Below, in pieces: positions 1,321-45,048 of a stretch of 64,000 nt of DNA; position 1 is the first letter of the stretch; every line of letters starts with the position of its first letter. Position numbers and translations under genes: made by a program. The stretch comes from Desulfovermiculus sp. (GTDB lineage Bacteria > Desulfobacterota > Desulfovibrionia > Desulfovibrionales > Desulfothermaceae), in assembly GCA_041686195.1 (NCBI GenBank), contig JAWLEI010000006.1, forward strand, positions 1,728 through 65,727, written 5' to 3'. The notes beneath the pieces were generated by a model. That model worked only from the letters and a program-made list of their open reading frames with translations, was not told the origin of the DNA and ran no database searches.

Positions 1321-1323
1321 ACA

Positions 1324-1469: not shown

Positions 1470-1537
1470 GCCAGAAACATACAGGCACATTTTTGCATCA
1501 GGAGCAGCAACCAGATTCACCGTGCAAGGGGGAGCAG

Positions 1538-2002: not shown

Positions 2003-2019
2003 CGAACAAAGGAAAAGCC

Positions 2020-3969: not shown

Positions 3970-4007
3970 GCTCTGACTGTGAAAAAACGTTCAAGGAGCC
4001 ACAGCCA

Positions 4008-4586: not shown

Positions 4587-4611
4587 CTATTCAGGGGAGG
4601 AGGCAAAACCC

Positions 4612-7035: not shown

Positions 7036-7044
7036 GCCAGGAAT

Positions 7045-7096
7045 CAGAAAACTTACCGGAGGGCCCGCTAACGTCGGCCCTCCGGTAAGTTTTCTG
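7045..7096. terminator. 21-bp perfect-stem hairpin between convergent genes; probable bidirectional terminator
   Basis: The arm cagaaaacttaccggagggcc (7045-7065) pairs with ggccctccggtaagttttctg (7076-7096) around a 10-nt loop. There is no separate U-tract beyond the U-rich end of the stem. Confidence 0.6.
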
Positions 7097-7099
7097 TGA

Positions 7100-8929
7100 T
7101 TACTTTGAAATTCCGGCAATCGAATAGACTGTCTGTCCATCCACCTCTTCCTGATCCAGCAGGGTTTGGGCCAGCTGGTCCAGGGCCTGCCGGTGGCGGC
7201 TCAAAAGGTCTTTGGCCTGTTCAAAAGCATCCTTGAGGATGGATTCCACTTCTTGATCCACTGCCTGGGAAGTGGCTTCGCTATATTCCTTGGTTTTGCC
7301 CAACTCCTCGCCCAGAAAGACCTGCCCCCCGGCACTGCCCAGGGCCATATGCTCGAACTGGCCGCTCATGCCCCACTCCAGGACCATTTTGCGGGCCATT
7401 TTCGTGGCCTGCTGCAGATCATTGGCCGCCCCGCTGGTCGCGGTTTCAAAAACCAGTGACTCGGCGCAGCGTCCCCCCATCATCACCGCCAGCCGGTCAT
7501 GCAAATATTCCCTGGGGTATATGTAGCGATCCTGATCCGGAAACTGCTGGGTCGCCCCCATGGACTGGCTTCTGGGTACAATGGAAACCTTGTGCACCGG
7601 ATCGGCATTGGGCAACAGGGCCCCCACCAGGGCATGCCCGGCCTCGTGGTAGGCCACCATGCGTTTTTCCTCATCAGTCATGACCAGACCGTGGCGTTTA
7701 AGGCCCATTAAAATCTTGTCCCTGGCGGCCTCAATTTCGTTATGGGTGATGGTTTCCTGTCCTTCCCTGGCTGCCAGCAGGGTGGCTTCGTTGAGCATAT
7801 TTTCCAGATCAGCCCCTGAAAACCCCTGAGTCTCCCGGGCCAGACGGTCCAGATCCACATCATCGCTGAGTTTCTTCTTTTGGGTGTACAGCTGCAACAG
7901 CTCCAGTCTGTCCTGAGTGGTGGGAAGATCCACCATGATCTGGCGGTCGAAACGACCCGGACGGCTCAGGGCCGGGTCCAGGATGTCCGGCCGGTTGGTA
8001 GCGCATATGACAATGATATTTTCATGGGCTTCAAAGCCGTCCAGCTCAGACAGAAGCTGGTTCAGGGTCTGTTCCCGTTCGTCGTGACCACCGCCCAGTC
8101 CGGCCCCCCGGCGCCGGCCGATAGCGTCTATCTCGTCGATAAAGATAATGCACGGGGCGTTTTTCCTGGCATCCTGAAACAGGTTGCGCACCCTCTTGGC
8201 CCCAACGCCCACAAACATCTCCATAAAATCAGAACCTGTTATGGAGAAAAAGGGCACTCCCGCCTCTCCAGCCACGGCCCTGGCCAGAAGGGTCTTCCCT
8301 GTGCCCGGGGGGCCAACGAGCATAAGCCCTTTGGGGATCTTGCCGCCCATTTCCTGAATTCTGCCCGGTTCTGTCAGATAGTCTACAACTTCCTGCAGCT
8401 CGACCTTGGCCTCCTGGGAGCCGGCCACATCGTCAAAGGTGGTTTTTTCCTGACTCTGGTCATACTTCTTGGCCTGGCTCTTGCCGATATTAAAGGGGCC
8501 TCCTCCCCCTCCTTGTCCCTGCATCCGCCGGTATTGGATATAAATGAGAGAGAAAATCAAAAGCATGGGCAGTAAAGAGATGATAATATACCAGAATACG
8601 CGATCGGTTTCCGGCTCAGTGGTCACCTCAACTTCCTGCTCCTGCAGCTCAGACATCAGCTCCTGATCACCGAAGGAAGGGAAATAGGTGGAAAAGTCGG
8701 TATATTTTGTATCTTGGTACGAGGCCTCTTCTTTCACCGTACCTTCGATGCTCTCGCCCTTGACCGTTATTTCCTGCACATTGCCATTTTCTACCTGCTC
8801 CAGAAATTCACTGTAGCTGATCTTGGTCGCGGCCTTGTACTGCGAAAGATAGCTCCAGGCGAAAAAAGCAAAAAATACAGCGAGAAGGATGAAAATATGC
8901 CTGTTTTGCTGCAAGTAGTTATTGGCCAT
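7100..8929 (-). CDS. ftsH: ATP-dependent zinc metalloprotease FtsH
   Basis: N-terminal TM segment, Walker [19 protein letters not shown], second region of homology, and the zinc motif HEAGHAL. Confidence 0.97.
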
Positions 8930-9160
8930 TTTTTACTCCGAATCGGGTGTATGTATCAATTCCATCCTCTTGCGGTATGAGCCTGAAAGCGTATATTAAT
9001 GGGCTGCACAATGGATTTGCTTAATCCGCTTGGGGCAGGCCGCAGGTAAGAACGTGCATAGATTCCATTTCAAGCATGATTTTGTCAACTAAGCTGGTGA
9101 GACCAGATCCGCCATGCCGGAAAGAGATCTCCATACCAGAATGACCATAGGACCTTTCAT

Positions 9161-10093
9161 ATGTACCTTAACCATTCTTTTCCCTCAGTCTTGGCCCGAT
9201 ACGATTTTATTCTCATGGAGGCGGCGGTCAGTGAGCTCTTGGCACACAGATATCAGTACCCTGTACATTCACAACTCGGCAGCGCTCCGGCTATCTATGA
9301 CCGGGCCGGGCAGCTGGCCTTAAAGAAGCTGTACAGCGGATTCCTGACCCTGGCCCGGGACAGCAATATACCCCTTTTGATCACTGCCCCGACCTGGAGG
9401 ACCAATCAGAACCTGGTCAGTATCTCGGATATTCCGGACACAATCAACCGGGACGCGCTCAGATTCACGCAAGGGTTGCGCCAGGAGCTCGGTCAGGAGA
9501 TGGAGCATCCGGTCCCCATCGGCGGATTGCTTGGACCGCTAAATGACGCCTACAGACCGGACCTGGCTCTGGATGAAGAAACCGGGCACCAGGTGCATGC
9601 CTGGCAGGCACACGAACTGGCCCAGGCCGGAGCGGACTATCTCATGGCTGCCACCCTGCCGGCAGTGGAAGAAGCAGCCGGTCTGGCAAAGGCCATGGCC
9701 CGGACCGAAATTCCCTATCTGGTCAGCTTTGTCATCAATCGGCAGGGCCGTATCCTGGACGGCAGTTCTCTGGATCAAGCCATACAGCGCATTGACGCTG
9801 ATTGCTCTCCGCCTCCAATTGGGTACATGATCAATTGTTCCTATCCGTCTTTTTTCCAGCCCCACGAGGAGCCAGCCAGATTTTTGGCCAGGATTATAGG
9901 CTATCAGGCCAATGCCTCTTCCCTGGAGCATCAGGAGTTGGACCAGGCCAGGGAGGTTCGGGCCGATGCAGTGGAGGATTGGGGAGAGCGGATGCTTGCT
10001 CTGCACCGGCGTTGGGGGTTGAAGATTCTGGGCGGATGCTGCGGAAGCGGCGAGGAACATCTGCGCTATCTGGTACAGGGGCAGAAAAGTTGA
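9161..10093 (+). CDS. homocysteine S-methyltransferase-domain protein
   Basis: The C-terminal GGCCGSGEEHLRYL is typical of the Hcy-binding zinc domain. Length and layout match standalone S-methyltransferase family members. Confidence 0.7.
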   Translation: MYLNHSFPSVLARYDFILMEAAVSELLAHRYQYPVHSQLGSAPAIYDRAGQLALKKLYSGFLTLARDSNIPLLITAPTWRTNQNLVSISDIPDTINRDALRFTQGLRQELGQEMEHPVPIGGLLGPLNDAYRPDLALDEETGHQVHAWQAHELAQAGADYLMAATLPAVEEAAGLAKAMARTEIPYLVSFVINRQGRILDGSSLDQAIQRIDADCSPPPIGYMINCSYPSFFQPHEEPARFLARIIGYQANASSLEHQELDQAREVRADAVEDWGERMLALHRRWGLKILGGCCGSGEEHLRYLVQGQKS

Positions 10094-10110
10094 AAGGTTC
10101 AAAAAAATAT

Positions 10111-10148
10111 AAAAAAAATGGCCTCCCGCGGGAGGCCATTTTTTTTAT
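10111..10148. terminator. bidirectional rho-independent terminator
   Basis: A8-tggcctcc-cgcg-ggaggcca-T8. It serves the + strand gene ending at 10093 and the minus-strand tRNA-Ala. Confidence 0.85.
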
Positions 10149-10153
10149 ATTTT

Positions 10154-10229
10154 TGGTGGAGGTGACGGGGATCGAACCCGTGACCTCAGCGTTGCGAACG
10201 CTGCGCTCTCCCAGCTGAGCTACACCCCC
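10154..10229 (-). tRNA. tRNA-Ala (anticodon CGC)
   Basis: The reverse complement is GGGGGTGTAGCTCAGCTGGGAGAGCGCAGCGTTCGCAACGCTGAGGTCACGGGTTCGATCCCCGTCACCTCCACCA. It has the G3:U70 identity pair, the anticodon loop TTCGCAA and an encoded CCA. Confidence 0.95.
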
Positions 10230-10352
10230 GATGCTGCACTATGCGCAGGAAAATCGTGTACACCCCAGACTCCGCATCTGTCAAGAAAGAGGTCATAGAG
10301 TTCCACGTTACGAAATCTCAAAAAAAGGTTTTGCGCCACGTGAGTACAACGT

Positions 10353-10916
10353 TCAGGCCGATTTTTTCTCCAGCCCCACTTCGGAGGCGATATCCTGCAT
10401 GGCGGCAATGCCGATCTGCAAAAATTCCCCCAGATCCAGGCCGATCTTCTCACATTCCTTGATTCGCTCCCGGTCCACATTGGCAGCAAAGCTCTTGTCC
10501 TTCATCTTCTTTTTCAGGCTCTTGGGCTTCATGTCTTCCATGCCTTCCGGCCGGACCAGTGCATTGGCCGAAATGAGTCCGGTGACGGTCTCTGCACAGC
10601 GCAGGGCGTAGTCAAATGTGCTCTGGGCAGTGGTCCCGTTCACCTCACAGTTGTGGGCGGCTATAGCCTGGACTGCCTCCTCTGGGAGCTTTCCCTGCAG
10701 TTTACGGGCGGAGATAAGTCCGTGGTCAGCAGGGTTGTTTCGGGTCTGCTCAAAGTCCAGGTCGTGAAGCAGTCCGGCCAGACCCCACATCTCCGGGTCA
10801 GCTCCCAGGCGGCCGGCCAGGCCGCGCATGACTGCCTCTGTTTCCAGGCTGTGATTGATGAGGCTCGCTTCATGCAGATTGGAATGCAGCATCTCCAAGG
10901 CGTTTTCTCGATCCAT
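10353..10916 (-). CDS. HD/HDIG-domain phosphohydrolase
   Basis: HNS...LLHDLD motif pattern. The ATG at 10916 is preceded by GGAG just after the ubiB stop. The longer tracked ORF (to 11078) overlaps ubiB and is rejected. Confidence 0.65.
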   Translation of the reverse strand: MDRENALEMLHSNLHEASLINHSLETEAVMRGLAGRLGADPEMWGLAGLLHDLDFEQTRNNPADHGLISARKLQGKLPEEAVQAIAAHNCEVNGTTAQSTFDYALRCAETVTGLISANALVRPEGMEDMKPKSLKKKMKDKSFAANVDRERIKECEKIGLDLGEFLQIGIAAMQDIASEVGLEKKSA

Positions 10917-10927
10917 TCTCGTCTCCT

Positions 10928-12586
10928 TCACATCTTTTTTCGCCGCAATATATCTATGACCAACCAGAAACCGACACAGGCGGATAGGAGATAACCGATC
11001 AGCCCCAGGGCCGGATAGCCGAAAATAAAGGGCCGTACCCCGGTGGTGATGATCATGGAAGATCCAATGATCATGCACCCAGTGATGATGCCCAGGGTCA
11101 GACGGTTGGCGATGCGGTCCAAGGTCAGACGCATCCCGTCCAGGTTCTTATGCTCAAACCTGATGGACAGCTGATCGTGTTCCAGCTTGGCCAAAATTTG
11201 ATTGGCCTGACGGGGGAGATCCTTTTGCATCTGCAGGGCATTGCTCACCCCTTTGCGCAGCTGGCGGTAAATGAGGCGGGGGGAATATTTGCCCAGGGCG
11301 ATGCGCCGTACAAAGGGAGTGGACTCAGTGACCACATCCAGCTTGGGGTATAAAAGGCGGGCCGAGCCTTCGCTGGTGACCAGGGCTTTGATCATGATGG
11401 CCAGATCCGATTTTATCCGGATCTTGTACTGGTGCAAGAGGCTGGTGATCGCGGAAAGGAGCTGGCCGATGTTGATTTCTTCCAAGGGCAGGGAATAGAA
11501 ATCATCCAGGAGATCCATGATATCCCGATGCAGCTCATCAGTATCAACTCCAGGGTCGTGTTCGGAAAAATCAAGGAGGATGTCCAGTACGGTCTCGCTG
11601 TCCCGGTCCACGATCCCTTCCAGCAACGTGATCAGCTTGAGTCTGGTGTTTGGCGTCAAGCGGCCGACCATGCCCCAGTCCAGCATGGTGAATGTCCCGT
11701 CATCCATGACAAAGATATTGCCAGGATGAGGATCGGCGTGGAAGAAACCGTCCTCTAGGATCTGCTTCAGAGAGGCCCGCAAACCGTTCCGGGCCAGGAG
11801 CAGGCGTTTTTCCTCAGGCAGAGCGGTAACATTGCGCAATTTGGTGCCCTGGACGAGTTCCATAATCAGCACTTTCCGCGTGCTGTATTCTGAGAATACC
11901 GCTGGAAACCTGATGTACTCGTGGCCCTGGAAATTGGCCTGGGCCAGGCGGATGTTCCTGGCCTCGCGCTCAAAGTCCAGCTCCCGCAAAAGCATGCGTC
12001 GAAGCTCATGAACCAGCCCGGGCAGATCATACAAGGTCATGACCTCGATGCGCTCATGGATCTGTTTGGCCAGTCCGGCCATGATATCCAAATCGTTGCG
12101 AATAACCTGTTCGATACCCGGACGCTGAACCTTGACGGCCACGACAGTATTGTCCGCAACCAGTCGGGCTCGGTGCACCTGGGCCAATGAGGCCGCAGCC
12201 AAAGGCTTGGGCTCGATATAGGCAAAAATCTCCTCTACCGGGCGTTCCAGATTCTTTTCAATCTGAGAGGATATTGCCTCCCAGTTTTCGGCCTGCACCT
12301 CGTCCTGGAGGCGGCTTAATTCATTGGCTAAAGCCGGTGGAAGGAGGTCTGTACGAAGGCTGAGGAGTTGTCCAAACTTGACAAAAGTCGGTCCCAGTTC
12401 GGTGAGAACATACCGGATGCGCTTCCAGGTGCTTTCGTCCTGCCGTTCCGACTTTCGAGACGGCTTGGGAAATATGATCTTGTCCGGAAGATCCAGCCTG
12501 GAAAGCAAATCACCGAATCCGTACTTGATCAGGGTAAATGAGATTTCCTTAAACCGATTCAATCTGGACAGGGTGTGCAGATCCAA
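10928..12586 (-). CDS. ubiB: ABC1/UbiB-family atypical kinase
   Basis: ABC1 kinase-like core (AAASLAQVHRA...FHADPHPGN) plus two C-terminal TM helices. The start codon is TTG. Confidence 0.85.
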   Translation of the reverse strand: MDLHTLSRLNRFKEISFTLIKYGFGDLLSRLDLPDKIIFPKPSRKSERQDESTWKRIRYVLTELGPTFVKFGQLLSLRTDLLPPALANELSRLQDEVQAENWEAISSQIEKNLERPVEEIFAYIEPKPLAAASLAQVHRARLVADNTVVAVKVQRPGIEQVIRNDLDIMAGLAKQIHERIEVMTLYDLPGLVHELRRMLLRELDFEREARNIRLAQANFQGHEYIRFPAVFSEYSTRKVLIMELVQGTKLRNVTALPEEKRLLLARNGLRASLKQILEDGFFHADPHPGNIFVMDDGTFTMLDWGMVGRLTPNTRLKLITLLEGIVDRDSETVLDILLDFSEHDPGVDTDELHRDIMDLLDDFYSLPLEEINIGQLLSAITSLLHQYKIRIKSDLAIMIKALVTSEGSARLLYPKLDVVTESTPFVRRIALGKYSPRLIYRQLRKGVSNALQMQKDLPRQANQILAKLEHDQLSIRFEHKNLDGMRLTLDRIANRLTLGIITGCMIIGSSMIITTGVRPFIFGYPALGLIGYLLSACVGFWLVIDILRRKKM

Positions 12587-12740
12587 GGGGCGTCCTTAAT
12601 GCAGGCTACAAATTCCAGGTATATAAACAAGAGGGACAAAGCCACAAAGGAAGAAGGAAGTACTGATTCCAAGCACCAAATCTCAAACTATGAGAACGAT
12701 CTCTTGTCCTCAATTTCTTTCATTTGCCAGAAGGGGGCGA

Positions 12741-13118
12741 TTATTCTCCCTCTGGCCCAGGTTTTTCAATTTGTGGTGCACTGGTTTGTCCGCCGGCAGC
12801 AGCTGCGGCAAGTTGATCTTCCAGGAGCATGACCCTCTTTTCCAGATTGTCCACCCGGTGGCGTAATTGGTCCACATCTTCGGCCTGAGCCAGATGCATG
12901 CCTTTGGTCACCCGTTCCACTATCTCGGTAATCTGGTTTCGGATGTCCTGCATTTCCTTCTCTCCAGTTTTACACATATCATTGGTGAACCGTTCCGCCT
13001 CTTCAGTGGTCAGCTTGCCCTGATGGACCAGGGACTCCATGGTTTCCTGGACCTTGGCCGTGGATACTACTGCTGTACCAAGACCGGCCAAGGCCAACTT
13101 TTTGGCCAGTTCCAGCAT
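12741..13118 (-). CDS. phasin-family protein (PHA synthesis regulator-like, coiled coil)
   Basis: MLELAKKLALAGLGTAV...QGKLTTEEAERF resembles phasin-type (COG3937-like) proteins often found next to ubiB. AGGAG precedes the ATG at 13118. Confidence 0.55.
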   Translation of the reverse strand: MLELAKKLALAGLGTAVVSTAKVQETMESLVHQGKLTTEEAERFTNDMCKTGEKEMQDIRNQITEIVERVTKGMHLAQAEDVDQLRHRVDNLEKRVMLLEDQLAAAAAGGQTSAPQIEKPGPEGE

Positions 13119-13332
13119 AGAGATCACTCCTTTTCTTGATTGACAACATTTCCAACAGGGTTGGAATGAAGAGATTACAGACATGCGCAATATTAGGCGA
13201 AGCTGAACATTTCTTCAATAGAACTTGATGAACACGGGGCATAGGCTCAGGTGTGCAAAGAGTTACTCAGCTAAGTCCTTTGTGCTTCAGAATGGGTATA
13301 TCCTGTTTGCATAGAGTGATAGGCTCGCCATT

Positions 13333-13671
13333 TTATGAGCCTGAAGGGATCTCTTCTTCGTCTTCCAGGATATGAAAAAAGTCTATCAGCTTGACCAGAC
13401 TCAAGGTCTTGCGGACCTGTGGAGAAGGGGCAAGGAGATAGAACTCCTTGTTTTTACTTGTCTTGCGGTTGTTGATATGGACCAGAAAACCTATCCCCGA
13501 ACTGTCTAAAAAAACAGTTTTGGACAGATCCATGACCAGAGCCATGCACTCGGATCCGCTCAAGTATTCTTCGATTTGGTCTTTCAGGCTGTCTATGACT
13601 TCAAGGGTCAATTCACCTGAGTAGCGAAGGATACAGGCTTGCCCTTTTTTGTCGACTTTCATCCTTTCCAT
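13333..13671 (-). CDS. STAS-domain anti-sigma-factor antagonist (SpoIIAA/RsbV-like)
   Basis: STAS length and the phosphorylatable motif FLDSSGIGFLV. Confidence 0.85.
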   Translation of the reverse strand: MERMKVDKKGQACILRYSGELTLEVIDSLKDQIEEYLSGSECMALVMDLSKTVFLDSSGIGFLVHINNRKTSKNKEFYLLAPSPQVRKTLSLVKLIDFFHILEDEEEIPSGS

Positions 13672-14081
13672 GCGCTCTCCTCAATACGTCGTTCCATGCT
13701 CAGGGCATTTTGCCCCTGGTTATGCTGATAGCCAAAAGAATCAACGAGTCGGGAAATGATAAACAGACCTCGTCCGAACTCATCTCGAGGGTCGGAGCAG
13801 ACAGTCTCTTCAGGGCCTTCAAAAGGAGGGCCGTTATCCCTTACCTCCATCCGGATTCTTGTCCAGGGATCAATATGGATATGAACCTCCAGCTCCCCCT
13901 TGGCCTCCGGTCCGTAGGCATGAAGCATAACATTAGTGCACGCCTCGCTCAATACCAGACGGAAATCATAGATCAGGTCCGAGTCCTGTATCCATTCCTG
14001 CAGAAATTCAGCCACAGATCTCGTCAAGGCGTTTATCTGTTCAGGTGTGGCCCGGGAGTGAAACACCTTACTTATTTTCAT
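13659..14081 (-). CDS. RsbW/SpoIIAB-like serine kinase (HATPase_c)
   Basis: N-box EACTNVMLHAY and G-box DNGPPFEG...GRGLFII. It overlaps both neighbours by 13 to 14 nt. Confidence 0.8.
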   Translation of the reverse strand: MKISKVFHSRATPEQINALTRSVAEFLQEWIQDSDLIYDFRLVLSEACTNVMLHAYGPEAKGELEVHIHIDPWTRIRMEVRDNGPPFEGPEETVCSDPRDEFGRGLFIISRLVDSFGYQHNQGQNALSMERRIEESAWKG

Positions 14082-15219
14082 CGTGTTTCCAGTGGATCCA
14101 CAGTGCGCTGCGGTCATCAGGAAAGGCCGGCCGGCCTTCCAGGTCTTGGACCATTCTGGCTTCAAGCTTTTCCATGCTGAAGTTTGGCTCACATAAAAGT
14201 TGAGAAGCCAGGTTCAGGAAATTATTCAGCCCATAACGCCGAGTGGGCGAGATCTTCCACTCGTAATAGCCGTCGGTAAAGAGAAAGAGCCCGCAACTCT
14301 CTGAGATATCCAGAGTGACCGGCTGAAATTCCAGATTAAAAAAGCCAAGGATAGTGCTGGTAGGTTCTAATAGGTCTGTGTGCTGATTTTTGCTGACCAT
14401 CAAACCTGGGCAATGACCGGCATTGATATAGGTTATGACATTATTGTTTTGATCGATATCAGCTGCAAACATGGTTACAAAATCCATTTCCTGGCCTAAA
14501 ATATCATTTAGCTGGGTATTGATGAGCTGTAAAGTATGGGCCAGATCCAGATAATGGATTTCGGTTGTTCGGGTTAAGGCCCGGACAATGCCCATTAAAA
14601 AGGCCGCCCTGGCTCCGTGTCCGGAAACGTCGGCAATGACTACCCGGAGTACGTCGTTTTGAACATTGAAAAAATCGTAATAGTCTCCACTGGCTCGACC
14701 GGAAGGATAGTAGGCGCTTTGAATGGCCAGATCATGGGTATAGTAGCATTCCTTGGGGATGAGCTTGTCCTGCAGGGAGGCTACAGTGTCGAACTCCTGA
14801 GCGATACGTTCAAACGCGGCCCGGAGTTGCTTGTTCAGCCTGATCTGTCTCTTGGCCACATTGATTCTGGCCTTGAGTTCCTCGTGATCAAAGGTTTTGA
14901 CCAAAAAATCATTCGATCCAAGGTTTAAGGCCTGGGTCTTTGTGCCCACATCGGCAATCGAGGTCAGGGATATGATGTAGAGATCATTGTCCCCCATCTG
15001 GTTGCGAATAAAGCGAATGATATCTTTCCCGTCGCAAGAGGGAAGGTTGAGATCCAATATCAGGATGTCCGGCTTGAATTGCTTATACTCCTGCACAGCC
15101 TGATCACCATCTTCAGCCATGCGCAACTGATAATTCTGACCTTGGAAGACAGAATTGAGGCTCTTCCGCCAGATGGAGGAATCGTCTATGATCAGGATCT
15201 TGATATCGTTATTTTGCAT
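14068..15219 (-). CDS. response-regulator receiver fused to a PP2C/SpoIIE phosphatase (RsbU-like)
   Basis: Receiver motifs ILIIDDS...DILILDLNLP. PP2C motifs GDYYDF...ADVSGHG...TDG. Confidence 0.9.
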   Translation of the reverse strand: MQNNDIKILIIDDSSIWRKSLNSVFQGQNYQLRMAEDGDQAVQEYKQFKPDILILDLNLPSCDGKDIIRFIRNQMGDNDLYIISLTSIADVGTKTQALNLGSNDFLVKTFDHEELKARINVAKRQIRLNKQLRAAFERIAQEFDTVASLQDKLIPKECYYTHDLAIQSAYYPSGRASGDYYDFFNVQNDVLRVVIADVSGHGARAAFLMGIVRALTRTTEIHYLDLAHTLQLINTQLNDILGQEMDFVTMFAADIDQNNNVITYINAGHCPGLMVSKNQHTDLLEPTSTILGFFNLEFQPVTLDISESCGLFLFTDGYYEWKISPTRRYGLNNFLNLASQLLCEPNFSMEKLEARMVQDLEGRPAFPDDRSALWIHWKHDENK

Positions 15220-15306
15220 GCAAGATGTAGTCCAAAGGTGACAAAATGTCGTGAGACTCAGCTTTTTTTGAGGCTGACCAAGGGGGCGAAAGATTTTTCG
15301 CTCCTC

Positions 15307-15777
15307 CTATCCACCCCGGTGGTTACTGTCCAATGTCAAGGTAAACGGACCCCAATTGCAGAGCTGGATATCCATCTCCTGCCCAAAAAAACCACTGGAA
15401 ACCGGGCCCGGGGCAACTCTGGTCAGGTCCTGCACAAAGCGATCATAAAGGGCTTGGGCCTTTGGGGCCGGGGCAGCCGGGGTGAAAGAGGGACGCCGCC
15501 CTTTATTCCAGTCTGCATACAAGGTGAATTGGGAAATAATCAGAAGAGATCCGCCGATATCCTTCAGGCTGGCTGCAGAACGCCCCTTATGGTCTGGAAA
15601 GATACGCAAGCTCACGATCTTGTCAAGGAGCTTGGACCAGATGGGAGAATGCGGCAAGTCCAGATCATCGCCCCGGCCGAATCCAATCAAAACAACCAAG
15701 CCGGTCGAGATGGCCGCTTTTTCCAGACCATGGATCAACAGGCGGGCGTTTTTTACCCGCTGCAAGACAATGCGCAT
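15307..15777 (-). CDS. dtd: D-aminoacyl-tRNA deacylase
   Basis: MRIVLQRV...SQFTLYAD..KGRRPSF signature. The ATG at 15777 directly follows the queD stop. Confidence 0.9.
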   Translation of the reverse strand: MRIVLQRVKNARLLIHGLEKAAISTGLVVLIGFGRGDDLDLPHSPIWSKLLDKIVSLRIFPDHKGRSAASLKDIGGSLLIISQFTLYADWNKGRRPSFTPAAPAPKAQALYDRFVQDLTRVAPGPVSSGFFGQEMDIQLCNWGPFTLTLDSNHRGG

Positions 15778-15778
15778 G

Positions 15779-16177
15779 CTATCTTTCGCTGTAGATGGCT
15801 TCCGAGCTTTCTTTTTCAGCCACACTTACTTCCCGCAGACGGACCGGATGATCAGCCAGAAGGGATTTGAGCCGGGTATAGATGTATTTGGCTACATTTT
15901 CTGAAGATGGATTGTCCTTGAGAAATGGTTCCAGCTCATTTAAGTGCCGATGATCCAAGGTATCCAATACGGTTTTCAGTTGTTCCTTAAGTTTCTTGAA
16001 ATCCATAAGGATTCCAGTCTTGGGCTCCAGATGATCGCCTTCAACCTCCACCCGGACCTGGAAGTTGTGACCGTGCAATTCTTCGCACTTGCCCTGGTAA
16101 TGACGCAACTGATGTGATGAGCTGAAGTCGTCAGTGATTCGCAGCCGATATACGGACAGGGGACTGTTCTCGGACAT
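15779..16177 (-). CDS. queD: 6-carboxy-5,6,7,8-tetrahydropterin synthase
   Basis: CEELHGHNF zinc/catalytic motif. GAGGAG precedes the ATG at 16177. Confidence 0.9.
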   Translation of the reverse strand: MSENSPLSVYRLRITDDFSSSHQLRHYQGKCEELHGHNFQVRVEVEGDHLEPKTGILMDFKKLKEQLKTVLDTLDHRHLNELEPFLKDNPSSENVAKYIYTRLKSLLADHPVRLREVSVAEKESSEAIYSER

Positions 16178-25200: not shown

Positions 25201-25368
25201 AAGATTTTACACCCCAGATGGGCCTGCCCTTGAGGGCAAGGGCGGCCTACTGGTGGCCCGGCTTTTGGGTAGGGCGGGCTTGACCCCAAGCCCAGCCCTT
25301 TTCATACTCAGTTTCTTTCTTGATCAAGCTGGGCGTCTGCCGCCAGTGGCGGGGCTGAAACCTGACAC
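25194..25368 (+). repeat. module L, copy 2 (3'-truncated)
   Basis: ATGAAACaagattttacaccccagatgggcctgcccttgagggcaagggcggcctactggtggcccgg...cccttttcatactcagtttctttcttgatcaagctgg... Confidence 0.85.
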
Positions 25369-39079: not shown

Positions 39080-39922
39080 CTATCCGCCGGGCAGAGTACC
39101 GTATAAGGCCAGGCTGAGGTCGTTGATGATCTCAATCTCTTTTTCGGCTCTCTCGGTATTAATACTTAGCATGGGTATTTTTTGCATAAGCAAAGTTTCC
39201 ATGGCCTGACCGGCACGTCTCTTTTCCAGAAAAGCAGCCCGATCCAAACTGTGTTCCAAGAGCTCTTTCTTGACTGCCAAGGCCTGGACCATATCTTCGT
39301 TTTCAAAACATTCCTGGACAAAAGCCAGAGCAAAGCCGAAGTATTCCGGGAAAAAAGGCGAAGAAACCGGGACATGTCTGAGAACTGCAGCCAGAAATGC
39401 GGCCCTGGTTCCGGTCAATGGAACTGCGGCCAGACGCAGGCGAGCCCGGACCCAGGTCTGCCAGGAATGGGGGACAGAGTCGGTCACTGCCTTTTCCAAC
39501 TCCGGAGCCAGAGTGCGCTGGATATGTAAGCGGCTGACAACGCCTTCCATAAGGCCCTGGTTTAGTTTAAGATGTATTTGCAGCCCATCCGGAAAGATGA
39601 TCCGAGCTTTCGGACACTGGTGCATGAGGACCCGAGTCAGATCAGCATGGGAGACCGAGTTCGCATCCGGGCCTTGCAAAAATGGCTCCAGCTCCATACG
39701 TTGAGCCATGGAGGGCGAGAGCAAAAGGTCAAGAAGACACTCCTGTTCTGAATCGGGAGAGTCGGGAAGATTTGCGAGTGCGGATCTGATGGCCTGGACC
39801 GAGTCCAGGCCCAATGTGGAGCTGGCAAAGTGGAGCACTTCCTGGTTTAAATCAAAGGAAGAAAGAATCACCCGGCATATGGCCTGAGCCAAATCATAGG
39901 TGGTATCAGTTTTGCCGGCCAT
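39080..39922 (-). CDS. hypothetical protein (280 aa, helical, no recognisable domain)
   Basis: Long ORF with coding-like composition. AAGGGGA precedes the ATG at 39922. I recognise no motif. Confidence 0.5.
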   Translation of the reverse strand: MAGKTDTTYDLAQAICRVILSSFDLNQEVLHFASSTLGLDSVQAIRSALANLPDSPDSEQECLLDLLLSPSMAQRMELEPFLQGPDANSVSHADLTRVLMHQCPKARIIFPDGLQIHLKLNQGLMEGVVSRLHIQRTLAPELEKAVTDSVPHSWQTWVRARLRLAAVPLTGTRAAFLAAVLRHVPVSSPFFPEYFGFALAFVQECFENEDMVQALAVKKELLEHSLDRAAFLEKRRAGQAMETLLMQKIPMLSINTERAEKEIEIINDLSLALYGTLPGG

Positions 39923-39956
39923 GCTCGTCCCCTTATTTATTTCAGTGATAAAAAAC

Positions 39957-40799
39957 ATGATGTCTTTGTCTTCTCTTCTCATATCAGTGATCATTCCCAC
40001 ATACAACCGGGCCCATATCCTGCTTCGGGCCGTGCAATCGGTCTTGAGTCAGACGCATTCTCATTTGGAATTGATCATAGTGGACGACGGCTCTGAAGAT
40101 GCCACCCTCAAGGCGGTATCAGCTCTGCAAGACCCTCGGATACGCCGTGTGCATCAAGATCATCAGGGAGTGGCGGCTGCCAGGAATGCAGGGATCCTCC
40201 AAGCCAAAGGCGAGTACATAGCCCTTTTGGATTCCGATGATGTCTGGGAACCGAGCAAGCTTGAGCTGCAATTGTCTTTTACTCTGCAGGGAGGGTGGAA
40301 CATCACCCAAACCGAAGAAATCTGGATCAGGCACCAGCAAAGGGTCAATCCTGGCCTGCGGCACATTAAGCCCAGCGGGTGGATCTTTGCTCCCTCTCTG
40401 AACATGTGTCTGGTCAGTCCCTCCTGTGTGCTCATGCATCGCAGGTGCTGGGATGAGATCGGGCTGTTTGATTCGCGGCTTTTAGCTTGTGAGGACTATG
40501 ATCTGTGGTTGCGCTGTGCACTGCACTACCCCGTCGGGTTGGTTCCGCAACATCTCGTGACCAGGTATGCCGGACATGCTGATCAGCTTTCAGGAAAGAT
40601 TATTGGGATGGATCTGTACCGAATCATGAGTTTGAGCAAGTTGCTGTCCTGGTCCGATCTCACTGCGGAACAGCGGCATATGACCCGGATGCATCTTCAG
40701 AGCAAGGGGAAACGATATGTCCAGGGCTGTTTGAAACGCGGCAAGGAGGAAGAGGCCATGCGGGTGCAGAAAATGATCACAAAAGGGTTAAAACAGTGA
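39957..40799 (+). CDS. family 2 glycosyltransferase
   Basis: SVIIPTYNRAHIL...ELIIVDDGSEDAT...LDSDD motifs. The start is uncertain (39957/39960; no clear SD). Confidence 0.85.
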   Translation: MMSLSSLLISVIIPTYNRAHILLRAVQSVLSQTHSHLELIIVDDGSEDATLKAVSALQDPRIRRVHQDHQGVAAARNAGILQAKGEYIALLDSDDVWEPSKLELQLSFTLQGGWNITQTEEIWIRHQQRVNPGLRHIKPSGWIFAPSLNMCLVSPSCVLMHRRCWDEIGLFDSRLLACEDYDLWLRCALHYPVGLVPQHLVTRYAGHADQLSGKIIGMDLYRIMSLSKLLSWSDLTAEQRHMTRMHLQSKGKRYVQGCLKRGKEEEAMRVQKMITKGLKQ

Positions 40800-40850: not shown

Positions 40851-41207
40851 CTAAACTTCCTGTTTGTGGACTGCTTCGCTTTTTATTCTATTTAAGAGTT
40901 CAGACAGCACAGGGTGTACGTTTTCCCGGACATCTCCGGCCACAATGATAAACAACAGGTCCTGGCCGGGCTGAAATTCTCCCTGGTTGGCCTGAACAAT
41001 GATTCGAAATATGCCTGGCCGAGATTCATACTCCCGGCGCAAGGCCTCTATCCGTTCCTGATCAGGGGTGACCTTCAGAGAATGAACTGGATCCTTGCTG
41101 CCCCGGGAATGGCCGCGAACGACCCCGTTATGGATAAGGACCATGCCCACCTGATCCTGAAAACCGGGTTCGTTTTTCAACCTGCTCAAGGCCTCTGTAA
41201 TATCCAT
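40851..41207 (-). CDS. MoaE-like small protein (molybdopterin synthase large-subunit fold)
   Basis: VGMVLIHNGVVRG...LLFIIVAGDVRENV...LLNRIKSEAVHKQE parallels the MoaE pattern (G.F.G.vR...v.v.s.HR...lK...p.wKkE). AAGGTGA precedes the ATG at 41207. Confidence 0.5.
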   Translation of the reverse strand: MDITEALSRLKNEPGFQDQVGMVLIHNGVVRGHSRGSKDPVHSLKVTPDQERIEALRREYESRPGIFRIIVQANQGEFQPGQDLLFIIVAGDVRENVHPVLSELLNRIKSEAVHKQEV

Positions 41208-41357
41208 TGCTTCACCTTTGGTTATTCTCAATATATTTCAGAGAGAAAGGGCGGCATAAAAATATGCCGCCCTTGTACTTGGGAAGTATTCCGGGAACTT
41301 GCTGGCCATGCATTCCACGGAAGATCTCTTCCCTGCATAAAAGCTCTTTGACTTTCT

Positions 41358-41675
41358 TTACACGCAACCAGTTGGTTTGGGCAATCCGGCCATCTTGCAT
41401 GCTCCCTTTCCAGGCCCGGAAGGAAACAACTCGTAGATTTTTTTCAGCTTAAAGCCGGTTACCTTGGACAGGATACGTACCATGGGTGCGATGCCATTTT
41501 TCTTGTAATAGTCTTGCAAGAACTCGATGACCTTGCGGTGTTCATCTGTGAGTTCCTTGATCCCTTCAGATTCTTTGACATAGTCTACCCATTCCGGGCT
41601 CCAGTCATCAAAGCTCTGCAAGAAGCCGTCTTCATCGATTTCGAATGTTTTGCCTTTAAACTCGACAGTTGCCAT
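41358..41675 (-). CDS. dsrC: DsrC (TusE-family sulfur-transfer protein of dissimilatory sulfite reduction)
   Basis: 105 aa. The C-terminal arm CKMAGLPKPTGCV has the two conserved Cys residues (CX10C, with the penultimate Cys). A strong AAGGAGG RBS is present. Confidence 0.9.
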   Translation of the reverse strand: MATVEFKGKTFEIDEDGFLQSFDDWSPEWVDYVKESEGIKELTDEHRKVIEFLQDYYKKNGIAPMVRILSKVTGFKLKKIYELFPSGPGKGACKMAGLPKPTGCV

Positions 41676-41856
41676 GTGTCAACCTCCTTGACCGACAGTT
41701 TATTGAGAGTTGGCTTGCAAAAACCAAAAGTCAAAGACACGTCTACAATCAGACATGTAATTGAAACTTGTTGAGAAATGGGTAATTGAAATTCACCCCC
41801 CCGTCAAGGGGACGATGCGCTGCACAGTGCCCAATACGTCAACGCATAAAGTATAT

Positions 41857-41886
41857 TTTATAAAAGCTTGCAAAGGATCTTGTCAA
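41857..41886 (-). promoter_or_regulatory. candidate sigma-70 promoter for dsrC
   Basis: On the minus strand, TTGACA (41886-41881), an 18-nt spacer, then TATAAA (41862-41857). This would give a leader of about 170 nt. Confidence 0.4.
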
Positions 41887-41984
41887 GGCTGGTTCCTTAG
41901 AGAGGGTCAGGTTCTTTTGCTCTCCTTGCTATAGCCAGTGATCTCAATATGCTAACTTTATGGCCTGATGGTATTGTATTTTGT

Positions 41985-43724
41985 TTACTCTCGGGCCAAT
42001 AGGTCTTTTAATTCAGAACGCGCGGCTTCCAGACCAGGATCGAGCTCTAAACCGGCTTGTAAATAGCTAACTGCCTGCTTGGTTTTCCCGGCCCGCTTCA
42101 AGCATATGCCCAGATTGGCCAGGTCCATGGCAGACCCGGGATCCAGGCGCAGAGCGGCCTGAAAATCTTCAATAGCCTGTTCGTACCTATGTTCCTTGAA
42201 GTAGCAGACTCCGCGCAGGTTGTATACAGCATGGAGATCAGGAGCAAGATCCAGGGCCCGGGAAAGAATAGGTTCCATCTGCTGCCACTTCCCCTCCTGG
42301 CTTAAGCAGTATGCTTGATAAAACGCAGCAAAAGCCTGATCTTGAGCTGTGGGTTGCAGGGGTTCTGCCTGGACAAAGGCATCAAAGGCTTCCTGCATAC
42401 GTCCCTGGCGCATAGTGAGCAGGCCCTGGAAAAAAGGGAGAAAATGAGCGCTGGGATAGATTGAACCCAAAACCTGCAAACCGCGCCGTGCATCGTCCAG
42501 AGGCCGCTTTTCGGCCAGAATACGGCCTACGAACAAACCCAGGCTGGTATGGGTGCTACGTTCCCGAAAATCAAAGCCAGGGATTATGGAGTAATGAGCA
42601 GGTATGTTCAGTTCAGGGTGGGTGGTATCCACTATATAGGATGAATACCCGTGTTCTTGAAGCATATGTGCCACTCTGGACAGTTCCACAGCCATGTCCG
42701 GATGGTTCATGTCCGGTAAGGCGGACAATGGAATGTCCGGGCCTTGCCGCAGCCAGCCGCAGTCCTCCAGTCGGGTAAACTTGCCCAGTCCGGAGGGCTC
42801 ATAACAACTTCCGGACTCAAAATCACCAGCCAGTTGAGCGACCTCAGTCAGGGCCCTGATGGCCGCCTTATCCGGGGATGTGGCTGTCCCGGCTGTAAAC
42901 ACAATTTCACTGGAATGCGGGAATGTGCCTGGATCATATGCCAAGGCCCCCACTGTAGGCACAGCAAAGTCAAGGCTTAAGTCTTTGAGCCAAACCTGAA
43001 CTCCGTTGCGGACAAAGGCAGCGTAGAGTTGGTGCAGGACAGGATTGTTTAATGAGGCAGGGTCTATGCCGGGCAGGTTCGGGTGCTGCGCATCTATCCG
43101 AGCGCACACATGGCGCTCGACAAGTTCGCAAATCCCCTGCAGCGCGGACTCCACGGCCAAATTTCCAGCCGATGAGCCATTGAATTCATTGATTGTCTGA
43201 AACCAGTCCAGGGGGAGGAATGTCTCCCGCCCGGCGTGCAGGTCATAGCCCGAACAAAAGGACCAGGGTATCAAATCCAGAATTTGGACTGCTTCCTCCT
43301 GTGGGAGGTCTTCGTGCACTGAATTTAAGATTTCCTGGATCGGGATCAAGGCCGTACCAAACTGCTTCCGGGCCTGAGTCCAGGTCAAGCGGGGCAGCTT
43401 CTTCAACTCATCATCCTGGTTCAGGAAAGAAAAGAGGCTGTAGCGTTCTATGAATTCCATTAAGGCCGAGGCTTCGGCCTGGGCCGGAGACGCACCTTTG
43501 CCCATCTGTTTGCGGGTAGGCATGACTTCTCTGGCCTTTGGCCCGCAAACAGATAAATAGACAGGAATTCCCAGTCGGCCGGTATCAACCCTTTGGGTTC
43601 TTTCCAGAAGGCTATCTCCGCTGCGCTCCAGAACGGAGCGGACATAGCTCACCGTTTGTTCCGGAGAAACGGCCTTGTCCAGATCCCGGGTATATCCTTT
43701 GTGACAGGAGGAGAGTTCAAGCAT
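41985..43724 (-). CDS. YcaO-domain protein fused to C-terminal TPR repeats
   Basis: YcaO-like N-terminal roughly 400 aa (...GIPVYLSV...MGKGASPAQAEASALMEFIERYS...GSSAGN...). The C-terminal roughly 140 aa carry several TPR motifs. Confidence 0.8.
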   Translation of the reverse strand: MLELSSCHKGYTRDLDKAVSPEQTVSYVRSVLERSGDSLLERTQRVDTGRLGIPVYLSVCGPKAREVMPTRKQMGKGASPAQAEASALMEFIERYSLFSFLNQDDELKKLPRLTWTQARKQFGTALIPIQEILNSVHEDLPQEEAVQILDLIPWSFCSGYDLHAGRETFLPLDWFQTINEFNGSSAGNLAVESALQGICELVERHVCARIDAQHPNLPGIDPASLNNPVLHQLYAAFVRNGVQVWLKDLSLDFAVPTVGALAYDPGTFPHSSEIVFTAGTATSPDKAAIRALTEVAQLAGDFESGSCYEPSGLGKFTRLEDCGWLRQGPDIPLSALPDMNHPDMAVELSRVAHMLQEHGYSSYIVDTTHPELNIPAHYSIIPGFDFRERSTHTSLGLFVGRILAEKRPLDDARRGLQVLGSIYPSAHFLPFFQGLLTMRQGRMQEAFDAFVQAEPLQPTAQDQAFAAFYQAYCLSQEGKWQQMEPILSRALDLAPDLHAVYNLRGVCYFKEHRYEQAIEDFQAALRLDPGSAMDLANLGICLKRAGKTKQAVSYLQAGLELDPGLEAARSELKDLLARE

Positions 43725-44487
43725 CTGATCTGGTCAGGTTATTGTTCATGTCTTTTTTTTGTTTCATCCGCAATATATTGCACAAATGCCTTTCCGGCCG
43801 ACCGGATTCTGGATTTTGTTCCTTATAACCCAAGGTCCGTTCCTGCACAGCAAACCTGCTTTCAATCAATTCAAAAAATCCGGAGGCCTGGAAGATATGG
43901 CTTTTGGCCAGCAGGACTTCTCCGCCGGGAGCCAAATGGTTCTGCAAAAAGTCCACCAGTGGGGTATACGTCTCATCCCGGTACAGGACCTCAGAGCCAA
44001 TAATTCGGTCAAAACGGCGGTCCAAGCGGTCTGCAGTGAAATCAACAGCTGCAAGCTGTACCCTGTCCTGCAGGGAATTTTGCAGGACATTGATCCGGGC
44101 AAAGAGCAGAGCGTCCGGGTGATAATCGGTCATAACCACATAAGCCCCCTGGCTTGCTGCCACAAGTCCGCAGACCCCGACTCCAGCCCCTATTTCGAGG
44201 ACCTCAAGGTCAGTTAGGGCATAGGAAGAGGCCAGGATATGGCTGAGCAGGATAGACGTGGGCCAGATCTTGGCCCAAAAAGGCAGATCCAGTCCTTCAT
44301 CGTTTCGGGCCGACGCGGCCAGATTTTCGATGTAGGCTTCCATGTCCTGGATTTGCAGAATTTGCAGTTTGATGTCACCGATATTTACCGGTTCAAAGTG
44401 GACCGGATAACGGACCTTGACTTGTTCTAAGAGCTCGTCCAGTCCGGCCTGGGGAGAAAATTGAAGTTGGTGGTTGTTCTTTGGCAT
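43717..44487 (-). CDS. class I SAM-dependent methyltransferase, Methyltransf_16/METTL21-like (protein-lysine methyltransferase type)
   Basis: IWPTSILLSHIL...LEVLEIGAGVGVCGLVAA..GAYVVMTDY...IIGSEVLY. The stop overlaps the ycaO-like ATG (ATGCTTGA). The tracked start at 44526 is a TTG; the ATG at 44487 is used here. Confidence 0.7.
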   Translation of the reverse strand: MPKNNHQLQFSPQAGLDELLEQVKVRYPVHFEPVNIGDIKLQILQIQDMEAYIENLAASARNDEGLDLPFWAKIWPTSILLSHILASSYALTDLEVLEIGAGVGVCGLVAASQGAYVVMTDYHPDALLFARINVLQNSLQDRVQLAAVDFTADRLDRRFDRIIGSEVLYRDETYTPLVDFLQNHLAPGGEVLLAKSHIFQASGFFELIESRFAVQERTLGYKEQNPESGRPERHLCNILRMKQKKDMNNNLTRSDA

Positions 44488-44530
44488 AGATAAAAAAAAG
44501 CCAAACTGGGTTTGGCTTGGATGCAATTGG

Positions 44531-44605
<75 letters not shown>

Positions 44606-44613
44606 TGAAAATA

Positions 44614-44688
<75 letters not shown>

Positions 44689-44693
44689 TTATC

Positions 44694-44768
<75 letters not shown>

Positions 44769-44947: not shown

Positions 44948-45048
44948 TGGGGCAAACCCGCCCTACGAAAAAGCCCGGCTCGCATGTAGGCCGCCCTTGC
45001 CCTCAAGGGCAGGCCCTCTTCAGGGTAAAGTTTCATGCGAGCTTCAAA
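44948..45048 (-). repeat. module L, partial inverted copy (5' half), ending in GTTTCAT (45039-45)
   Basis: The reverse complement, cgcATGAAACtttaccctgaagagggcctgcccttgagggcaagggcggcctac...gggcgggtttgccccaagccc, matches 25194-25300. Confidence 0.8.

Follow-up and report, generated by a model that had tools for sequence, protein, structure and literature searches.

To our knowledge, backbone thioamides have been found in only two proteins, McrA of methanogens and uL16 of Pseudomonadota, and in both they are made by a YcaO enzyme. The YcaOs of M. jannaschii and M. kandleri, found in sulfide-rich organisms, are reported to use sulfide without TfuA, a protein that reportedly feeds YcaO from a ThiS/MoaD-type thiocarboxylate. 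E. coli YcaO thioamidates Met82 of folded uL16, without a partner and with sulfide in vitro (Rice et al., Biochemistry 2026, PMC13063428); its tetratricopeptide repeat (TPR) domain serves in dimerisation and perhaps in substrate binding, and its sulfur donor in vivo is suspected to come from primary metabolism (PMC13063428). Here we describe a YcaO protein with a C-terminal TPR domain (YcaO-TPR) that is encoded in a 64,000-nucleotide (64-kb) stretch of a Desulfovermiculus sp. genome (contig JAWLEI010000006.1; hereafter the window), where its gene follows that of a predicted METTL21-like methyltransferase (MT) and precedes dsrC and moaE. We tentatively propose, as a reading that is plausible if still short of probable, that YcaO-TPR would thioamidate a protein backbone as a stand-alone enzyme, with a partner that methylates lysine and with a tie to DsrC. 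Thioamidation of a folded protein by a stand-alone YcaO-TPR is already known from E. coli YcaO, and DVU2210 of D. vulgaris is a described gene; new are the coupling to a METTL21-like MT, the phylogenetically recurrent link to dsrC and the LarE and other sulfur-relay partners in sister clades, together with what may be a concrete assignment for orphan DsrC modifications and for a molybdate phenotype.

YcaO-TPR among described YcaO proteins

Profile hidden Markov model (HMM) searches place a YcaO domain at residues 74-384 (PF02624, 203.2 bits against a cut-off of 25.7, E = 8.5e-60) and TPR families across approximately residues 400-575, in about five TPR pairs; the AlphaFold model (predicted local distance difference test, pLDDT, 90.7) has 11 helices after residue 395. 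The ATP/Mg motif, defined as S-x6-7-E-x3-Q-x3-E-xx-E-R in PMC7774982, is intact (S185-x6-E192-x3-Q196-x3-E200-xx-E203-R204), the N-terminal ExxER motif of YcaO is present (E90xxE93R94), and all the residues named in the two are invariant in the family alignment. Identity of the protein to its homologues is 69-75% in other Desulfovermiculus-like genomes and 52-57% across the rest of Desulfovibrionales; its nearest proteins bear the name Desulfovermiculus, and the nearest genomes belong to the same group, placing the source within Desulfohalobiaceae (Desulfovibrionales).

By sequence and predicted fold the YcaO domain is nearest to the thioamide-forming archaeal enzymes. MJ1094 (6pe3/6peu) is the best YcaO in the PDB by sequence (5.5e-18), the YcaOs of M. 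jannaschii and M. kandleri (6ci7) are the best fold matches (template modelling (TM) score to the target ~0.73-0.78), and the best NCBIfam match is TIGR03266, the McrA-glycine thioamidation YcaO, at 107.8 bits, below its cut-off of 365. There would be a likeness in the target as well, in that the archaeal enzymes act on a key catabolic enzyme of an anaerobe that is also methylated by separate methyltransferases; however, they have no TPR domain, and the window protein is bacterial and has no McrA substrate available to it. With E. coli YcaO it shares the order of a stand-alone YcaO domain and then a TPR domain (~150-190 residues), a length of ~580 aa, an acidic isoelectric point (pI 5.25 for the window protein, 4.5-5.7 in the family and 4.4 for the E. 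coli enzyme; PMC13063428), the lack of an E1-like, RRE or TfuA partner, and a structural superposition over the full length including the TPR domain (4q84-4q86, TM ~0.41-0.49); like the E. coli enzyme, it would have a folded protein and not a RiPP as its substrate. Nonetheless the two are only 14-16% identical, with sequence similarity confined to the ATP-binding stretch (E = 3e-5); NF040716, the model for the E. coli type, aligns only with residues 164-265 and reaches 45.4 bits against a cut-off of 700. The window protein also differs in belonging to Desulfobacterota, in its coupled MT and in having a DsrC and sulfur-relay neighbourhood rather than a ribosomal one. YcaO-TPR may thus resemble the defined YcaO enzymes in action while standing outside their families by sequence model.

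With TfuA-YcaO systems that make thioamides in peptides that are made on ribosomes and modified after translation (RiPPs), and with the azoline cyclodehydratases of thiazole/oxazole-modified microcins (TOMMs), the protein has in common the YcaO domain for ATP-dependent amide activation, but a TfuA, an E1/RRE partner, a dehydrogenase and a precursor peptide are all missing from the locus. TIGR03604, the SagD-type azoline cyclodehydratase model, is matched below its threshold (80.4 bits against 219). Among the open reading frames (ORFs) of at least 220 aa in the window we found no TfuA, no ThiF/E1-like protein and no nitroreductase-type dehydrogenase, and no RRE/E1 partner, protease or exporter was found in its 64 kb; TfuA was also not found in the related loci inspected. 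No MoaD/ThiS-like ORF ending in GG was found at the locus, and no conserved small ORF in the spacer between YcaO and dsrC. We therefore reject a RiPP reading, given that the spacers hold no conserved precursor-like ORF and the 64 kb no RiPP partner genes.

YcaO-TPR belongs to the family of the described D. vulgaris protein DVU2210. The ATP motif of a Nitratidesulfovibrio homologue is one residue off the published DVU2210 motif, the invariant S193 of the window protein corresponds to S195 of DVU2210, the architecture is shared, and the layout of DVU2211 and DVU2212 matches that of related loci. DVU2210 differs in that dsrC lies elsewhere in its genome (DVU2776), and the MT, dsrC and moaE neighbours were not mentioned in PMC7774982. 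An earlier note on this DNA, made from the letters alone, had recognised Methyltransf_16, YcaO, TPR, DsrC and MoaE domains, and the profile searches bear all of these out; so do the window ORFs and spacers its statement that no RiPP partner or precursor lies nearby, and its preference for a folded-protein substrate over a RiPP gains support. The DVU2210 family (PMC7774982) had escaped it.

A methyltransferase-YcaO operon next to dsrC

The MT is, by domain and motif, a predicted member of the METTL21-like protein lysine methyltransferase family. It matches Methyltransf_16 (PF10294) at 62.1 bits (cut-off 21, E = 7e-17), its best PDB relative is human METTL21A (E = 2.7e-13) followed by METTL21B, C and D, and the (D/E)xx(Y/F) post-II motif reads E-V-L-Y and is conserved in homologues. 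The Pfam family, the best PDB matches and the post-II motif are what it shares with METTL21A, VCP-KMT and eEF1A-KMT3; it differs from them in being bacterial, in a conserved 65-aa N-terminal extension and in sharing an operon with YcaO. Enzymes of this family usually add three methyl groups to a single lysine in a folded protein of high abundance. The start at MPKNN is consistent with homologues. In all, 275 homologues were found, every named one of which is from Desulfovibrionales.

MT and YcaO form a conserved two-gene, translationally coupled operon in Desulfovibrionales. The 8-nt overlap ATGCTTGA, reported in the earlier note together with the tRNA Gly-Cys-Gly cluster upstream on the minus strand, is real, as is the cluster, and the coupling is conserved in relatives: overlaps of 8 nt (n = 18), 4 nt (n = 13) and 1 nt (n = 5) occur in related genomes, and the two genes overlap or lie at most 20 nt apart in 44 of 55 loci. 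The hairpin that follows the tRNA cluster, which is terminator-like, stops 10 nt short of the start codon of MT, no Shine-Dalgarno sequence being visible, and several other genomes also have a tRNA sequence directly upstream of MT.

The next gene downstream encodes what by sequence is a bona fide DsrC of dissimilatory sulfite reductase, in the TusE/DsrC family (PF04358, 128.6 bits, E = 1.6e-37; TIGR03342, 121 bits); its arm is C93-X10-C104, and K48 and K78 are among its lysines. Judged by eye from the alignment, its identity to D. vulgaris DsrC (PDB 2v4j) is ~85%, and phmmer finds the chain crystallised with DsrAB, 2v4j_C, at E = 2.2e-58. The gap from the YcaO stop to dsrC is always at least 129 nt (median 244 nt). 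The near-consensus dsrC promoter, TTGACA-N18-TATAAA, and a ~180-nt leader are conserved in the loci L001-L004, and the spacer upstream of them is not; a consensus promoter scan missed this promoter because the last base of its -10 box is A. Among the conserved elements of promoter and leader (41676-41886, minus strand) are a hairpin CCCCTTGACGGGGGGG and a block TTCAATTACCCATTT, and the leader may have a regulatory role for dsrC, whose expression is the highest at the locus.

RNA evidence comes from contigs of salt-lake metatranscriptome assemblies that hold the exact locus sequence; these are strandless and may include carried-over DNA. Contig depth in three of four runs was 900-16000 for dsrC, 8-90 for MT/YcaO and 66-354 for moaE, dsrC lying ~50-700-fold above MT/YcaO, and in the fourth run (X4) it was flat at ~85-111. 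Contigs span the MT-YcaO junction (41614-44472 in X4 and 42931-44523 in X8), and one leads from tRNA-Gly into MT (43719-44558 in X12). From this continuity and from the position of the hairpin, MT-YcaO may be expressed by read-through from the tRNA operon. RNA contigs also go past the dsrC terminator into moaE, at ~2-26% of dsrC bin depth, and in two of the runs moaE is on contigs continuous with the 3' end of dsrC; moaE is probably transcribed by read-through from dsrC. There are then separate units, dsrC at a very high level and MT-YcaO, possibly with the tRNAs, at a low one. A single four-gene operon is accordingly rejected, as dsrC has its own conserved promoter and leader, its own terminator and a far higher RNA depth, behind a spacer that in no locus is shorter than the minimum given above.

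Recurrent neighbours of YcaO-TPR

We surveyed 80 species-level Desulfovibrionales genomes (L001-L080). MT lies immediately upstream of YcaO-TPR in 47 of the 67 loci with enough flank, dsrC immediately downstream in 51 of 69 genomes, and both flank it in 37 of 58. The whole NFACT-DksA-tRNA-MT-YcaO-dsrC-MoaE-GT2 block is syntenic within the order, where inheritance alone could account for the adjacency of dsrC. Neither LarE nor NIL-ferredoxin was found beside YcaO in L001-L080, and PrmA was found in 2 loci only.

Outside the order, a search of representatives at 50% identity returned full-length YcaO-TPR proteins at 34-45% identity, the named ones from Desulfatiglandales, a Desulfobulbus metagenome-assembled genome and Thermodesulfobacterium. 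In three of these distant lineages dsrC is again adjacent and on the same strand: P0256 (L170) and P0260 (L173) have YcaO and then dsrC, and P0252 (L169) has the reversed order ValRS-dsrC-YcaO. The three are on separate deep branches of the tree, with YcaO identities of 34-40% and different flanks, and their DsrCs, bona fide ones (75-78% identity), all keep the arm cysteines, K48 and K78. By a rough estimate, a given gene would be the immediate neighbour by chance with a frequency below 1e-3 per genome; set against this, that dsrC recurs as a neighbour, in one case with the order reversed, is strong evidence of a functional tie. The dsrC link suggested by the earlier note is thus not a coincidence of the Desulfovibrionales block.

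Other distant members have other neighbours, and these alternatives share one theme, that of sulfur transfer. LarE (TIGR00268, 291-307 bits) lies 12-36 nt upstream in P0246 (L085; LarE at 986-1792) and P0248 (L081; LarE at 5135-5965), the latter with a DsrE2-like gene nearby. In a metagenome scan of the P0248-like clade (L088-L167), LarE is on the same strand at a median of 39 nt upstream in ~23-25 of 80 loci, and the other neighbours are housekeeping genes. P0403 (L084) has NIL-ferredoxin downstream and a divergent MnmA, P0265 (L087) has MoaA 59 nt downstream, and PrmA is divergent in P0250 (L086) and P0247 (L168). Beside YcaO-TPR of P0251, P0258 and P0254 there is nothing telling.

Several further observations concern these loci. 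The gene upstream of YcaO-TPR in L081 was considered as an MT homologue and rejected, being LarE. This LarE-type PP-loop sulfur transferase of the sister clade has CxxC...C cysteines, presumably marking it as the iron-sulfur type. A DsrE2-like gene is close to YcaO-TPR also in L111. In L170 a MiaB/RimO-like radical-SAM methylthiotransferase (8912-10267; UPF0004, Radical_SAM and TRAM domains) is encoded two genes downstream of YcaO-dsrC; there is an old link between E. coli YcaO and RimO.

DVU2210 genetics and the modified DsrC of D. vulgaris

The genetics of DVU2210 tie the YcaO-TPR family to the sulfate-reduction system. In a sat-deletion background, and only there, either the S195R substitution or deletion of DVU2210 confers resistance to molybdate, and its loss there possibly gives resistance to tungstate too (PMC7774982). 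In fermentation the DVU2210 mutant reaches a higher density, as the sat mutant does (PMC7774982), and DVU2210 was also mutated in lines evolved under syntrophy, whose sulfate respiration erodes (PMC8319347).

Modified forms of native D. vulgaris proteins were listed by Chhabra et al., whose Table 1 has trimethyl-lysine on ApsA, ApsB, RplL and DsrC (...DHQK*IIDF...) (PMC3125180); lysine trimethylation of sulfate-reduction proteins was first reported by Gaucher et al. 2008, as cited in PMC3125180. A second native DsrC peptide, LK*EVYELFPSGPGK, was recorded as 'Trimethylation+Oxidation' in three independent pull-downs (PMC3125180). It contains no Met, Cys or Trp, and in DsrC it forms the hinge that leads into the catalytic C-terminal arm. 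At the 100-ppm tolerance used, +15.995 (oxygen) and +15.977 (O to S) are inseparable (PMC3125180), and the supplements of that paper state no site for the +16 Da. No enzyme was proposed for these marks (PMC3125180), and a literature search found no paper connecting YcaO with DsrC. K48 and K78 of D. vulgaris DsrC are conserved in the window DsrC. MT and YcaO-TPR may be the natural candidates for the +42 and +16 Da marks on DsrC, respectively for methylation and thioamidation.

Proposed function and alternatives

We propose that the YcaO domain would bind ATP and Mg and phosphorylate the oxygen of a backbone amide in a folded protein, and that sulfide, abundant in a sulfate reducer, or protein-bound sulfur would then displace the phosphate to leave a thioamide, in parallel with the action of E. 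coli YcaO on uL16 and that of the archaeal enzymes on McrA. The TPR domain would dimerise the enzyme, dock the substrate, or both, and MT would (tri)methylate a lysine of the same target or target set. Thioamide chemistry, raised in the earlier note, is supported indirectly by the nearest YcaOs, by E. coli YcaO, by the LarE partner and by the +42/+16 Da DsrC peptide. The most likely target would be the DsrC hinge before the C-terminal arm (LK*xxYELFPSGPGK), and an alternative role for DsrC would be that of sulfur donor. That DsrC is the substrate of YcaO-TPR we nevertheless regard as possible but doubtful. It is tempting to picture a dedicated operon that tailors DsrC, the central sulfur carrier of dissimilatory sulfate reduction, with a hinge thioamide made by YcaO-TPR and a neighbouring lysine (perhaps also lysines of ApsA and ApsB) trimethylated by MT, a picture for which we hold similarly guarded expectations.

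A number of findings weigh against the proposed DsrC-linked thioamidase. YcaO-TPR does not reach the trusted cut-off of any YcaO subfamily with a defined function, MT occurs in Desulfovibrionales alone although YcaO-TPR is wider, and dsrC is transcribed alone, far above MT/YcaO in three of the four runs. Desulfomicrobiaceae have neither an adjacent MT nor an adjacent dsrC, in D. vulgaris Hildenborough dsrC is not beside DVU2210, and part of the dsrC adjacency is inheritance, since the unrelated NFACT, DksA, tRNAs and GT2 are syntenic too. We know of no thioamide or trimethyl-lysine reported in the native DsrAB-DsrC crystal structures. The +16 Da on DsrC could be ordinary hydroxylation or an oxidation artefact, and LK*EVYELFPSGPGK had the lowest ProtScore of its table (PMC3125180). 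Lastly, a mutant deleted for DVU2210 is as fast as the wild type in sulfate respiration (PMC7774982). Any modification of DsrC must, on this result, be dispensable. Dispensability is not decisive against DsrC as a target, because the thioamides of McrA and uL16 are also non-essential.

The alternative closest to our proposal keeps the same thioamidation and makes DsrC the sulfur donor, a TusE-like persulfide carrier, with another conserved protein, for example a ribosomal one, as the substrate. We think this unlikely, and equally so its corollary that LarE, DsrE2, NIL-ferredoxin or MoaD/MoaE would deliver the sulfur in other lineages. It is consistent with the variable neighbours all being sulfur-relay or sulfur-insertion proteins, with DsrC belonging to the TusE family, with the donor of E. 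coli YcaO being suspected to come from primary metabolism, with the acidity of the family, and with the recurrence of translation-related neighbours (the tRNA cluster, NFACT, the divergent PrmA of L086 and L168 and the divergent MnmA of L084). However, the cytoplasm of a sulfate reducer is rich in free sulfide, which the closest characterised YcaOs reportedly use without TfuA, the +16 Da was found on DsrC itself, the family is outside the E. coli YcaO group by the NF040716 score (45 bits against 700), and its distribution tracks sulfur-metabolising Desulfobacterota rather than a universal substrate. It is also conceivable, though improbable, that the adjacency is inherited gene order only and that MT-YcaO acts on an unrelated protein or an unrecognised RiPP and not on DsrC. 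The synteny of the entire NFACT-to-GT2 block within the order, the independence of dsrC as a transcription unit and the separation of the genes in D. vulgaris would all fit, but not the dsrC adjacency in three deep lineages with other flanks, once reversed, against the rough chance level given above, nor the failure to find a precursor-like ORF, RRE/E1 partner, dehydrogenase, protease or exporter.

The moaE gene downstream bears on two further possibilities, in both of which molybdenum is central. One, which we rate as quite unlikely, is that YcaO-TPR serves the molybdenum or tungsten (Mo/W) cofactor, either with MoaE-docked MoaD thiocarboxylate as its sulfur source or by modifying a molybdo- or tungsto-enzyme or molybdopterin synthase. 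MoaE shares the block with YcaO in Desulfohalobiaceae and Desulfovibrionaceae, it starts 12 nt past the YcaO stop in Desulfomicrobium L046, and MoaA lies close in the distant L087; this recurrent closeness keeps a cofactor-related explanation alive, as do the route by which TfuA reportedly feeds YcaO and the resistance to molybdate, possibly tungstate, upon loss of DVU2210 in the sat-deletion background. Against it, MoaE is within 10 kb in only 38 of 80 YcaO-TPR loci, and many genomes with YcaO have no molybdenum cofactor (Moco) gene there; no MoaD-like gene was found nearby; and the adjacency may be inherited, given that MoaE also travels with the GT2 gene. Among the seven Moco and tungsten cofactor (Wco) genes with a chlorate phenotype, DVU2210 is missing and moaE (DVU2212) is present (PMC10102598).

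The gene itself is the ordinary short MoaE of this lineage, orthologous to DVU2212. It scores 37.8 bits with PF02391 (cut-off 23.4), its AlphaFold model has a pLDDT of 93 and its top 33 PDB fold matches are all MoaE/MOCS2B (TM 0.70-0.82). R31, R94, K109 and K115 are invariant in homologues; K109 aligns with K119 of E. coli MoaE and, by counting along the alignment, R31 with R39, R94 with R104 and, approximately, K115 with K126. The H103 of E. coli MoaE is replaced by V or I in the short form, from which a C-terminal tail of ~25 residues is missing, and the NCBI name for the short family is MoaE. DVU2212 (363 nt) is preceded by DVU2211 (2619 nt) on the opposite strand, the same layout as in related Desulfovibrionaceae loci, and it has been treated as moaE, sharing the chlorate phenotype of moaA, moaC, moeA, moeB and mogA (PMC10102598). 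On the fold, the catalytic residues and the Moco/Wco genetics of DVU2212, MoaE is not a dedicated sulfur partner, as the earlier note had suggested it might be; nor do we favour it as a specialised dock for MoaD thiocarboxylate, in view of its fold and residues, the Moco phenotype and the lack of a MoaD or a second partner nearby. In Desulfovibrionaceae a protein of ~870-910 aa is encoded on the opposite strand between dsrC/YcaO and moaE (L054 12668-15394, minus strand; DVU2211), with weak TPR matches only.

The other molybdenum-based explanation is that of Zane, Wall and De Leon, who in 2020 proposed direct molybdate activation by DVU2210 (PMC7774982): YcaO would use up ATP in a futile cycle, adenylylating or phosphorylating molybdate (or sulfate). 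This would account for the relief of molybdate toxicity in D. vulgaris by mutation of the ATP motif or by deletion, once sat is gone. It leaves the TPR domain, the coupled MT and the dsrC and LarE neighbourhoods unexplained, we know of no YcaO that acts on a small oxyanion, and we consider it very improbable. Expression of DVU2210 also did not sensitise E. coli to molybdate (PMC7774982).

If our proposal of a DsrC-linked thioamidase is true, DsrC would be the third protein with a YcaO-made thioamide, after McrA and uL16, and the first in the sulfur cycle; a thioamide on DsrC, or served by it, would bring a rare modification into the core of sulfate reduction by microbes, which matters globally in biogeochemistry and in industry. 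The proposal would explain the published +42/+16 Da DsrC peptide and the DVU2210 molybdate phenotype, give a function to DVU2210 as the second genetic determinant of molybdate sensitivity in a model sulfate reducer, and name the enzyme behind lysine trimethylation of sulfate-reduction proteins. It would also offer natural examples of sulfur supply to a YcaO without TfuA (LarE, DsrC, DsrE2), of relevance to E. coli YcaO too.

Layout of the locus and other features of the window

On the minus strand the order is tRNA cluster, MT, YcaO-TPR, dsrC and moaE (Table 1). An Rfam scan of the region returned only the tRNAs and one terminator-like partial match (the 3' terminator part of CsrC).

Table 1. 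Features of the MT-YcaO-dsrC-moaE locus, in window positions
Feature	Position	Strand	Details
tRNA Gly-Cys-Gly cluster with terminator-like hairpin	44498-44768	minus	hairpin at 44518-44498
tRNA-Gly(gcc)	44694-44768	minus	
tRNA-Cys(gca)	44614-44688	minus	
tRNA-Gly(gcc)	44531-44605	minus	
MT (methyltransferase) gene	43717-44487	minus	ATG at 44487, stop at 43717, 256 aa
MT stop/YcaO start overlap ATGCTTGA	43717-43724	minus	8 nt, sequence inspected directly
YcaO-TPR gene	41985-43724	minus	579 aa
YcaO domain, residues 1-392	42549-43724	minus	PF02624 and intact ATP/Mg motif
C-terminal TPR domain, residues 393-579, and stop codon	41985-42548	minus	TPR_1, TPR_2 and related families
dsrC promoter	41855-41886	minus	TTGACA (41886-41881), 18-nt spacer, TATAAA (41862-41857)
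dsrC	41358-41675	minus	105 aa, PF04358 and TIGR03342
dsrC intrinsic terminator GGGCGGCATA-tttt-TATGCCGCCC with T-rich tail	41240-41272	minus	hairpin at 41272-41249
moaE, short MoaE	40851-41207	minus	ATG at 41207, 118 aa, PF02391

Upstream of the tRNA cluster, the true start of dksA is most likely the ATG at 45178, which has GGAGG ahead of it, and not the mechanically listed TTG at 44997; in the long dksA ORF, the match to Pfam DksA_N starts at residue 66. Nearby is a GC-rich palindromic element, GGCCGCCCTTGCCCTCAAGGGCAGGCCC..., of ~45-60 nt, present in two intergenic copies (44971-45033, plus strand; 25218-25247, minus strand). It is strongly structured (z -3.4) and reaches metatranscriptome contig depths of 3000-10000, with many contigs diverging on both sides; no Rfam family covers it, and none of the related loci fetched contains it. 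We considered the copy at 44971-45033 as a local small RNA and rejected this on account of the second copy. The element looks like a dispersed repeat of the repetitive extragenic palindrome or miniature inverted-repeat transposable element (REP/MITE) kind.

Beyond moaE, a 308-aa protein with the C-terminus ...LPGG is encoded at 39080-40006 on the minus strand, with no Pfam or NCBIfam match; in Desulfohalobiaceae its gene keeps synteny with those for GT2 and the amidohydrolase. Its true start is probably further in, because the listed TTG start runs into the GT2 ORF, which is divergent, at its 5' end. At the far end of the window (2020-7035, plus strand) a large protein with an FlpD/MvhD domain and 4Fe-4S domains is encoded after a NuoF-like flavoprotein (Complex1_51K), a pair that may serve the sulfate reducer as an electron-bifurcating module and is unrelated to the MT-YcaO operon.

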